The notes under the pieces: model-generated
Database searches by the model: none
What the model was told of the DNA's origin: nothing
What the model saw: the letters and a program-made list of their open reading frames with translations, nothing else
Source: Candidatus Heimdallarchaeum endolithica
GTDB lineage: Archaea; Asgardarchaeota; Heimdallarchaeia; Heimdallarchaeales; Heimdallarchaeaceae
NCBI GenBank assembly: GCA_021513715.1
Contig: CP084167.1
Coordinates: 2,816,001 to 2,880,000, forward strand
Direction: 5' to 3'
Length of the DNA: 64,000 nucleotides
Program-made: the position numbers and the translations under genes
Shown here: positions 13,749 to 13,928 of the stretch, in pieces
Layout: each line of letters starts with the position of its first letter
Position numbering within the stretch: position 1 is the stretch's first letter

Positions 13749-13928
13749 TCTAATGGCAATTTCAGGTTCGGAATGAGTCTGAGTGTTGCCCTGCCGCTAT
13801 GGCCGCGACGAATCGCAGCGAATGGCCGTTCCCAAGTGCTCTCGCAACTTAGTACAGGACCACACGCTGGCAGGCTTAACTTTCCCGAGTTTCTGGAACA
13901 CATCCAGATCCTTTCTGCTGCCATTAGA
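13749..13928 (-). rRNA. rrf: 5S rRNA gene, circularly permuted (core 13761-13881, enclosed by leader/trailer stem)
   Basis: Minus strand reads AGTTAAGCCTGCCAGCG...GTACT...GGGAA...CGCTGCGA (canonical 3' half), then TTCG, then TCGCGGCCATAGCGGCAGGGCAACACTCAGACTCATTCCGAACCTGAA (canonical 5' half). Helices I-V all pair. 10-bp inverted repeat at 13749-13758 / 13919-13928. Confidence 0.92.

Follow-up and report, generated by a model that had tools for sequence, protein, structure and literature searches.

The minus strand of the window (the whole 64,000-nucleotide stretch of the Candidatus Heimdallarchaeum endolithica genome analysed here) carries, at positions 13881–13761, a 121-nt 5S rRNA gene of permuted order. 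Free ends at helix I and a colinear order are absent; the two halves are swapped and helix I is closed by a UUCG loop (Table 1). The unit is bracketed by a perfect 10-bp inverted repeat, formed by the leader and trailer arms; the swapped halves, the UUCG cap and the repeat had been claimed in the original prediction, and all of their coordinates were verified on the minus strand. By every testable feature but gene order the locus is 5S rRNA, and it is almost certainly a functional permuted 5S gene.

Table 1. Features of the permuted 5S rRNA locus, in window coordinates
Feature	Positions	Strand	Evidence and remarks
3′ part of 5S rRNA (E. coli numbering A53 to helix I 3′ strand; helices II-3′, V, IV)	13813..13881	-	Transcribed first; sequence, profile, covariation
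UUCG loop closing helix I, site of would-be native ends	13809..13812	-	Sequence, ring-opening profile test
5′ part of 5S rRNA (helix I 5′ strand, helix II-5′, helix III, loop C, to A52)	13761..13808	-	Transcribed second; sequence, profile, covariation
Leader arm of the outer 10-bp processing helix	13919..13928	-	Sequence; compensatory changes at 9/10 pairs in the family
Trailer arm of the outer processing helix	13749..13758	-	Sequence, family covariation
Outer BHB, leader side: central strand GCAG and bulge AAA	13912..13918	-	GCAG against CUGA 13765-13762, 3/4 pairs in the window copy
Outer BHB, trailer-side bulge AAU	13759..13761	-	Putative
Junction hairpin, stem 13908-13903 / 13897-13892	13882..13912	-	With A13760, the predicted 32-nt intron
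Inner BHB: central strand CGGG and bulge AAA	13881..13887	-	CGGG pairs with CCUG 13766-13763
T-rich, terminator-like tract 3′ of the trailer	13732..13740	-	Predicted; sequence only
Candidate TATA box, A/T-rich, 40 nt upstream of the leader	13968..13975	-	Sequence

A tRNA-His(GTG) gene with a 16-nt insert in the anticodon loop (13527–13617) is encoded on the same strand as the 5S unit, 131 nt downstream of it, and is followed by gatE and gatD. By-eye reading of the neighbourhood revealed two Rab-like small GTPases lacking C-terminal cysteines (14573–15094 and 15686–16213, minus strand) and a TnpB-like ORF with a Ser/Phe-rich tail (17334–18680, plus strand). An 85-aa TTG frame overlapping the 5S gene (13730–13987) was rejected as a protein; a sigma-70 promoter scan is ill-suited to archaea.

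The Rfam search at the gathering threshold found no 5S rRNA at the locus, its sole match being the neighbouring tRNA-His. When RF00001 was run on the locus as is, it gave 31 bits on the 3′ half (cut-off 38) and a fragment of the 5′ half, in swapped order. A comparison profile built from 18 canonical (normal-order) Asgard 5S genes gave the two swapped half matches that had been expected (27.8 and 17.4 bits), and the in-silico re-permuted locus produced with this profile the single full-length match foreseen in the original prediction (56.7 bits, E 3.5e-19). Scoring of the 121 possible openings of the ring placed the best ones in the UUCG loop. As in canonical archaeal 5S rRNA (RF00001), there are five helices, the loop C and loop E motifs and a full-length match after re-permutation; unlike in the canonical gene, the order is swapped and helix I has no free ends. 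The permuted order is conserved in relatives, where 93% of the cells of helices I–V are paired (28–46% in slid controls) and both-sided, compensatory changes occur in 28 of 33 pairs. The loop that seals helix I is mostly 3–5 nt long across 59 loci (UUCG in 22 of them); the seal is mostly UUCG or YNCG on a helix of 7–13 bp and contains neither a BHB nor a removable linker.

The genome consists of one contig of 3,326,783 bases (3.33 Mb) and contains two 5S loci, both permuted, 94% identical and 359 kb apart; the search for a conventional 5S gene elsewhere in the genome found none, the permuted form being the only one. The window copy adjoins tRNA-His and the second copy (G000:C1:2471137-2471266, minus strand; L002:1449-1578) adjoins tRNA-Ser(GCT). 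In the largest genus, the single copies checked (L008–L010) are at the tRNA-Ser locus, yet have a nested leader. The 16S and 23S genes are present in single copy, unlinked to the 5S loci; the 23S match (G000:C1:2131431-2135566, minus strand) spans 4,136 bases against a 2,987-position model and includes large inserts. Both uL18 and uL5, the putative binding partners of this 5S rRNA in the 50S subunit, are encoded. Long-read closed genomes of Ca. Heimdallarchaeum endolithica PR6 (3.32 Mbp) and H. aukensis PM71 (3.08 Mbp) were reported in PMC8813620, and the methods of that paper state that 5S genes could not be predicted; the 5S gene thus escaped prediction owing to its permuted order. This statement, together with the absence of any other 5S form and the conservation with covariation, supports the suggestion that a functional permuted 5S is missed by standard annotation.

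A misassembly, a collapsed tandem repeat or a pseudogene, with the real 5S gene elsewhere, would be the trivial explanation, and two relatives (G032 and G077) do carry tandem permuted units. This reading is extremely improbable and already largely refuted: the genome is closed and long-read (PMC8813620), it has two separate permuted copies and lacks any other 5S, the covariance model of the permuted form matches most genomes of the class, and the covariation is strong; misassembly or a collapsed repeat was rejected on the second copy and on the conserved order with compensatory changes in relatives. The inverted repeat had been taken as an argument against a chance rearrangement or misassembly; the locus is indeed no misassembly, on the evidence of the second copy and the conserved order, but the repeat itself turned out to be part of a nested BHB splice motif.

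The distribution counts given here are samples in which related genomes are not independent. All 30 other genomes of Heimdallarchaeaceae examined match, some partially and at contig ends, and the gene was recovered with the permuted covariance model from 79 of the 83 class genomes, with all seven families represented. RF00001 exceeds its cut-off in only 2 of 61 relatives, and neither match was accepted as a normal Heimdall 5S gene; one (L051) is half of a permuted gene, and the other (L050) is on a contig that does not seem to belong in its Heimdall bin. The L050 gene adjoins tRNA-Thr and rpoH/rpoB, and rpoB′ and rpoA′ appear to be fused in one 1441-aa frame on its contig. Sampling of the phylum added 14 further families with full-length permuted genes; among them are Jordarchaeia and Promethearchaeia, Atabeyarchaeia-1-like and Freyarchaeum-like genomes, and genomes of 1.4 Mb, which we take to be Odinarchaeia. 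Six Asgard families have instead a normal 5S gene above the RF00001 cut-off, in one of them in 26 of 26 genomes. A one-genome sister family has a divergent permuted 5S (L129, G031:C30:2964-3088) whose loop C and junction region are irregular and were not parsed by the rules used here. A pattern scan of GTDB, a small sample, listed 80 loci, four Asgard and 76 others; all four Asgard loci are permuted, and none of the 76 non-Asgard loci among those listed scores above 46 bits with the permuted model. Among 14 listed non-Asgard loci read by eye (13 archaeal, 1 bacterial) no permutation was found, and 13 are normal 5S genes.

Comparison of the flanks of the permuted genes outside Heimdallarchaeaceae revealed the motif in its simple form: leader and trailer form a BHB in which a 4-bp central helix, combining a leader strand with the 3′ strand of helix III, is flanked by two 3-nt bulges, the first of them adjoining an outer helix. 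With a criterion of at least three of four central pairs and at least five of six outer pairs, the BHB is present in 48 of 57 such loci; when trailers were swapped among loci as a control, 3.8 loci qualified on average and at most 10. The central helix is found in two registers (positions 47–50 or 48–51), and its leader strand tracks the 5S sequence, with 17 different pairings. The predicted BHB structure of the precursor flanks is in this sense shown by covariation. In-silico cutting after the second base of each bulge (the 2|1 BHB rule), followed by joining, restores the canonical 2-nt AA bulge in 41 of the 48 loci, in both registers, and in both H. endolithica copies. Counting against the splicing reading, one sister family (7 loci) yields under this rule a bulge of 3 nt, not 2 nt.

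Two further groups of genes bear on the use of this motif. Four Lokiarchaeia-type genes (L174 in G155, L165 in G193, L214 in G205 and L215 in G140) are broken in loop C (~36/37); the break lies in a BHB and joining restores the normal loop, so the break point has moved in evolution. Four other permuted 5S genes (L128 in G049, L161 in G099, L173 in G188 and L228 in G182), belonging to two different classes, contain BHB introns of ~20–30 nt in loop C (46/47). It is difficult to account for the second break site and the loop C introns unless the ends are ligated. Tandem permuted units, two in each case and each with its own BHB, were noted in two genomes (L041, G032:C18; L127, G077:C510) and are a possible intermediate in the movement of the break point.

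The genes of Heimdallarchaeaceae have a more complex leader, which contains, in order, the outer helix arm, NCAG, a 3-nt bulge ending in A, a hairpin, CRGG, AAA and the 5S sequence. A minimum-free-energy fold of the precursor recovered the outer stem but not the BHB registers, and comparative analysis was used instead. Among 23 distinct family sequences, CAG and the last bulge A of the outer BHB are invariant, the outer helix shows compensatory changes at nine of its ten pairs, and the hairpin stem also covaries. The inner CRGG pairs with positions 47–50 in all 23 sequences, with A-U/G-U variation only, and the predicted insert length is 31–33 nt in all 30 family loci that have the outer site. 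The window copy has three of four central pairs in the outer site (one G-A mismatch) and four of four in the inner one; a mismatch at the G-A position recurs in 8 of the 23 sequences, which counts against the outer site. The second copy of H. endolithica has no outer NCAG site; its single-step inner BHB comes with a 5-bp outer helix and leads to the same junction.

An independent nested case is provided by two Atabeyarchaeia-type loci (L145 in G093, L176 in G103), where both the outer and the inner BHB are perfect; the nested motif is missing in a relative (L122 in G113). Atabeyarchaeia are known for many non-canonical tRNA introns (PMC11291895). The L050 gene (also L229:8277-8414, minus strand, contig G028:C117) is of normal order, with a hairpin insert of ~20 nt that has a perfect BHB at the helix III bulge. 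The inner-only second copy, the presence and absence of the motif in Atabeyarchaeia and the L050 insert support the reading of the hairpin as a nested intron. Were only the outer BHB used in the window copy, the 32-nt hairpin would be kept as an expansion segment of helix III in a 153-nt ring, in line with the known expanded 5S rRNAs with retained helices (PMC7812874) and with the pairs flanking the inner bulge, which are broken or imperfect in many relatives and count against an inner cut. This outcome appears very unlikely, since the inner CRGG-AWA-G is invariant and always complementary to 47–50, which a retained insert would not need, and since one genomic copy has the inner site only and closely related Atabeyarchaeia differ in having the insert. 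Two splicing steps in the window copy are considered probable.

The following course of maturation can be proposed. The 5S rRNA, the transcription of which is presumed, would be made as an independent precursor, with leader and trailer paired in the BHB; EndA would cut both bulges and RtcB would join the new ends, so that helix III regains its AA bulge. In the window copy the first cuts, at the outer BHB, would fall at 13913/13912 and 13760/13759 and lead to a 153-nt ring, and joining at the outer site would create the inner BHB. Second cuts, at 13882/13881 and 13761/13760, would then remove the 32-nt hairpin intron and leave the canonical junction; the end product would be a 121-nt ring with helix I closed by UUCG. 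The same 121-nt ring would alternatively result from cutting at the inner site in a single step.

The enzymes that this course calls for are encoded in the genome. Two genes for EndA subunits (191 and 188 aa) were found, one above and one below the TIGR00324 cut-off, and their products presumably form a heterotetrameric enzyme; heterotetrameric EndA is of the relaxed-specificity type and processes the permuted SRP RNA of Thermoproteus (PMC4731332). RtcB is encoded as well, and the genome has many tRNA introns. The RtcB sequence lies within a 993-residue open frame (G000:C1:1674331-1677159, plus strand) with a long insertion after about residue 50, which is probably an intein.

The second break site and the loop C introns are the grounds on which cutting and joining by EndA and RtcB is rated as highly likely, and the keeping of a closed ring in the ribosome (50S) as rather probable. 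It may be that EndA cuts and the ends stay unjoined, leaving a 5S with a nick in the bulge of helix III that would stay permuted and linear, like the mitochondrial 5S of brown algae; linear permuted 5S rRNAs do exist in organelles (PMC4267664), and the bulge after joining varies between 2 and 3 nt. Searches of JGI metagenome contigs gave no match to the joined junction, with or without the 32-nt insert, or to a general ring pattern, which adds a weak negative on the same side, as small rings may be neither assembled nor included there. A nicked product is nevertheless unlikely: the cuts rebuild the exact canonical length in two registers and there is a second break site in loop C, the loop C introns in the same genes require RtcB anyway, and the products of EndA are the natural substrate of RtcB (PMC4731332).

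A different end for the ring can be imagined from tRNA maturation. The ring made from a permuted tRNA gene is reopened, which gives native ends. A 5S ring that is an intermediate, reopened at the helix I loop into an ordinary linear 5S, would follow this maturation route of permuted tRNAs (Soma et al., as cited in PMC4267664) and would fit the variable sequence of the helix I loop. However, such a reopening seems improbable, as a loop of 3–5 nt on a helix of 7–13 bp looks built for stability and offers no BHB or linker to remove, and an enzyme for the cut in this loop is not evident. The tight helix I loop without a removable linker therefore favours a permanent ring. Taken as a whole, the explanation by a working permuted 5S gene, a BHB spliced by EndA and RtcB and a closed ring in the 50S subunit is probably correct.

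The closest parallel is the SRP RNA of Thermoproteus tenax and T. uzoniensis, which has a permuted gene and a circular RNA (Plagens et al. 2015, PMC4731332). There, too, a universal RNA was thought missing and is encoded in permuted form, and leader and trailer form a BHB; heteromeric EndA cuts, ligation restores the element and the mature RNA is a ring. In contrast, the Asgard case concerns a ribosomal RNA and most of a phylum rather than one genus, has two break sites as well as introns in nested position and in loop C, and its ring is a predicted one. The original prediction knew of no permuted archaeal 5S rRNA gene, and no description of one was found in the literature covered, in which subscription papers are mostly not included; a permuted 5S does have a precedent, however, in the mitochondria of brown algae and other stramenopiles (Valach et al. 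2014, PMC4267664). The stramenopile 5S is likewise closed by a hairpin at helix I, has relocated ends and is missed by RF00001. It differs in being organellar, in having its ends at the three-way junction, whereas the Asgard break lies at the helix III bulge within a splice motif, and in remaining permuted when mature, BHB processing not being described for it. The permuted tRNA genes of Cyanidioschyzon merolae, as far as they are described in PMC4267664 (Soma et al. 2007), also have swapped halves that are cut and ligated in the right order; unlike in these genes, the native ends of the Asgard 5S are sealed by a stable tetraloop.

Archaeal 23S rRNA, known in circular and permuted form, is circularised by way of BHB, EndA and RtcB; circular 23S has been reported inside ribosomes and circular rRNA transcripts have been reported in Asgard archaea (PMC7758197, PMC12918454), but the genes of these circular rRNAs are in normal order and are joined outside the native ends. 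According to PMC12918454 (2026), 5S rRNA is not known to be processed via circularisation; unvalidated minor 5S circles from a normal gene were reported for Sulfolobus (PMC3326292), and a survey of expanded 5S rRNAs mentions neither permutation nor BHB (PMC7812874). As far as found, the gene described here would be the first case of a permuted 5S gene outside organelles, in a cellular genome.

There is about an even chance that the full generalisation holds, in which most Asgard archaea, including all seven families of the class Heimdallarchaeia, build their ribosomes with a covalently closed 5S rRNA that only the tRNA splicing machinery can make, the ring of Heimdallarchaeum arising in two nested steps and the break point being mobile via BHB introns. 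If so, this would, as far as found, be the first 5S rRNA whose maturation relies on tRNA splicing, and the closest archaeal relatives of eukaryotes could not make ribosomes without EndA and RtcB. Since eukaryotic 5S genes are colinear, the ancestor of eukaryotes would have come from a lineage with a normal gene, or the gene would have been un-permuted later. The split between permuted and normal genes among Asgard families represents a new phylogenetic character. The predicted RNA species are an exact junction, rings of 153 and 121 nt and a 32-nt intron circle.

Apart from the insertions considered above, inserts of ~30 nt were observed in helix IV or helix I of four Asgard 5S genes (L160 in G168, L214 in G205, L178 in G197 and L213 in G194), one of them in normal order; these are candidate introns or expansion segments.
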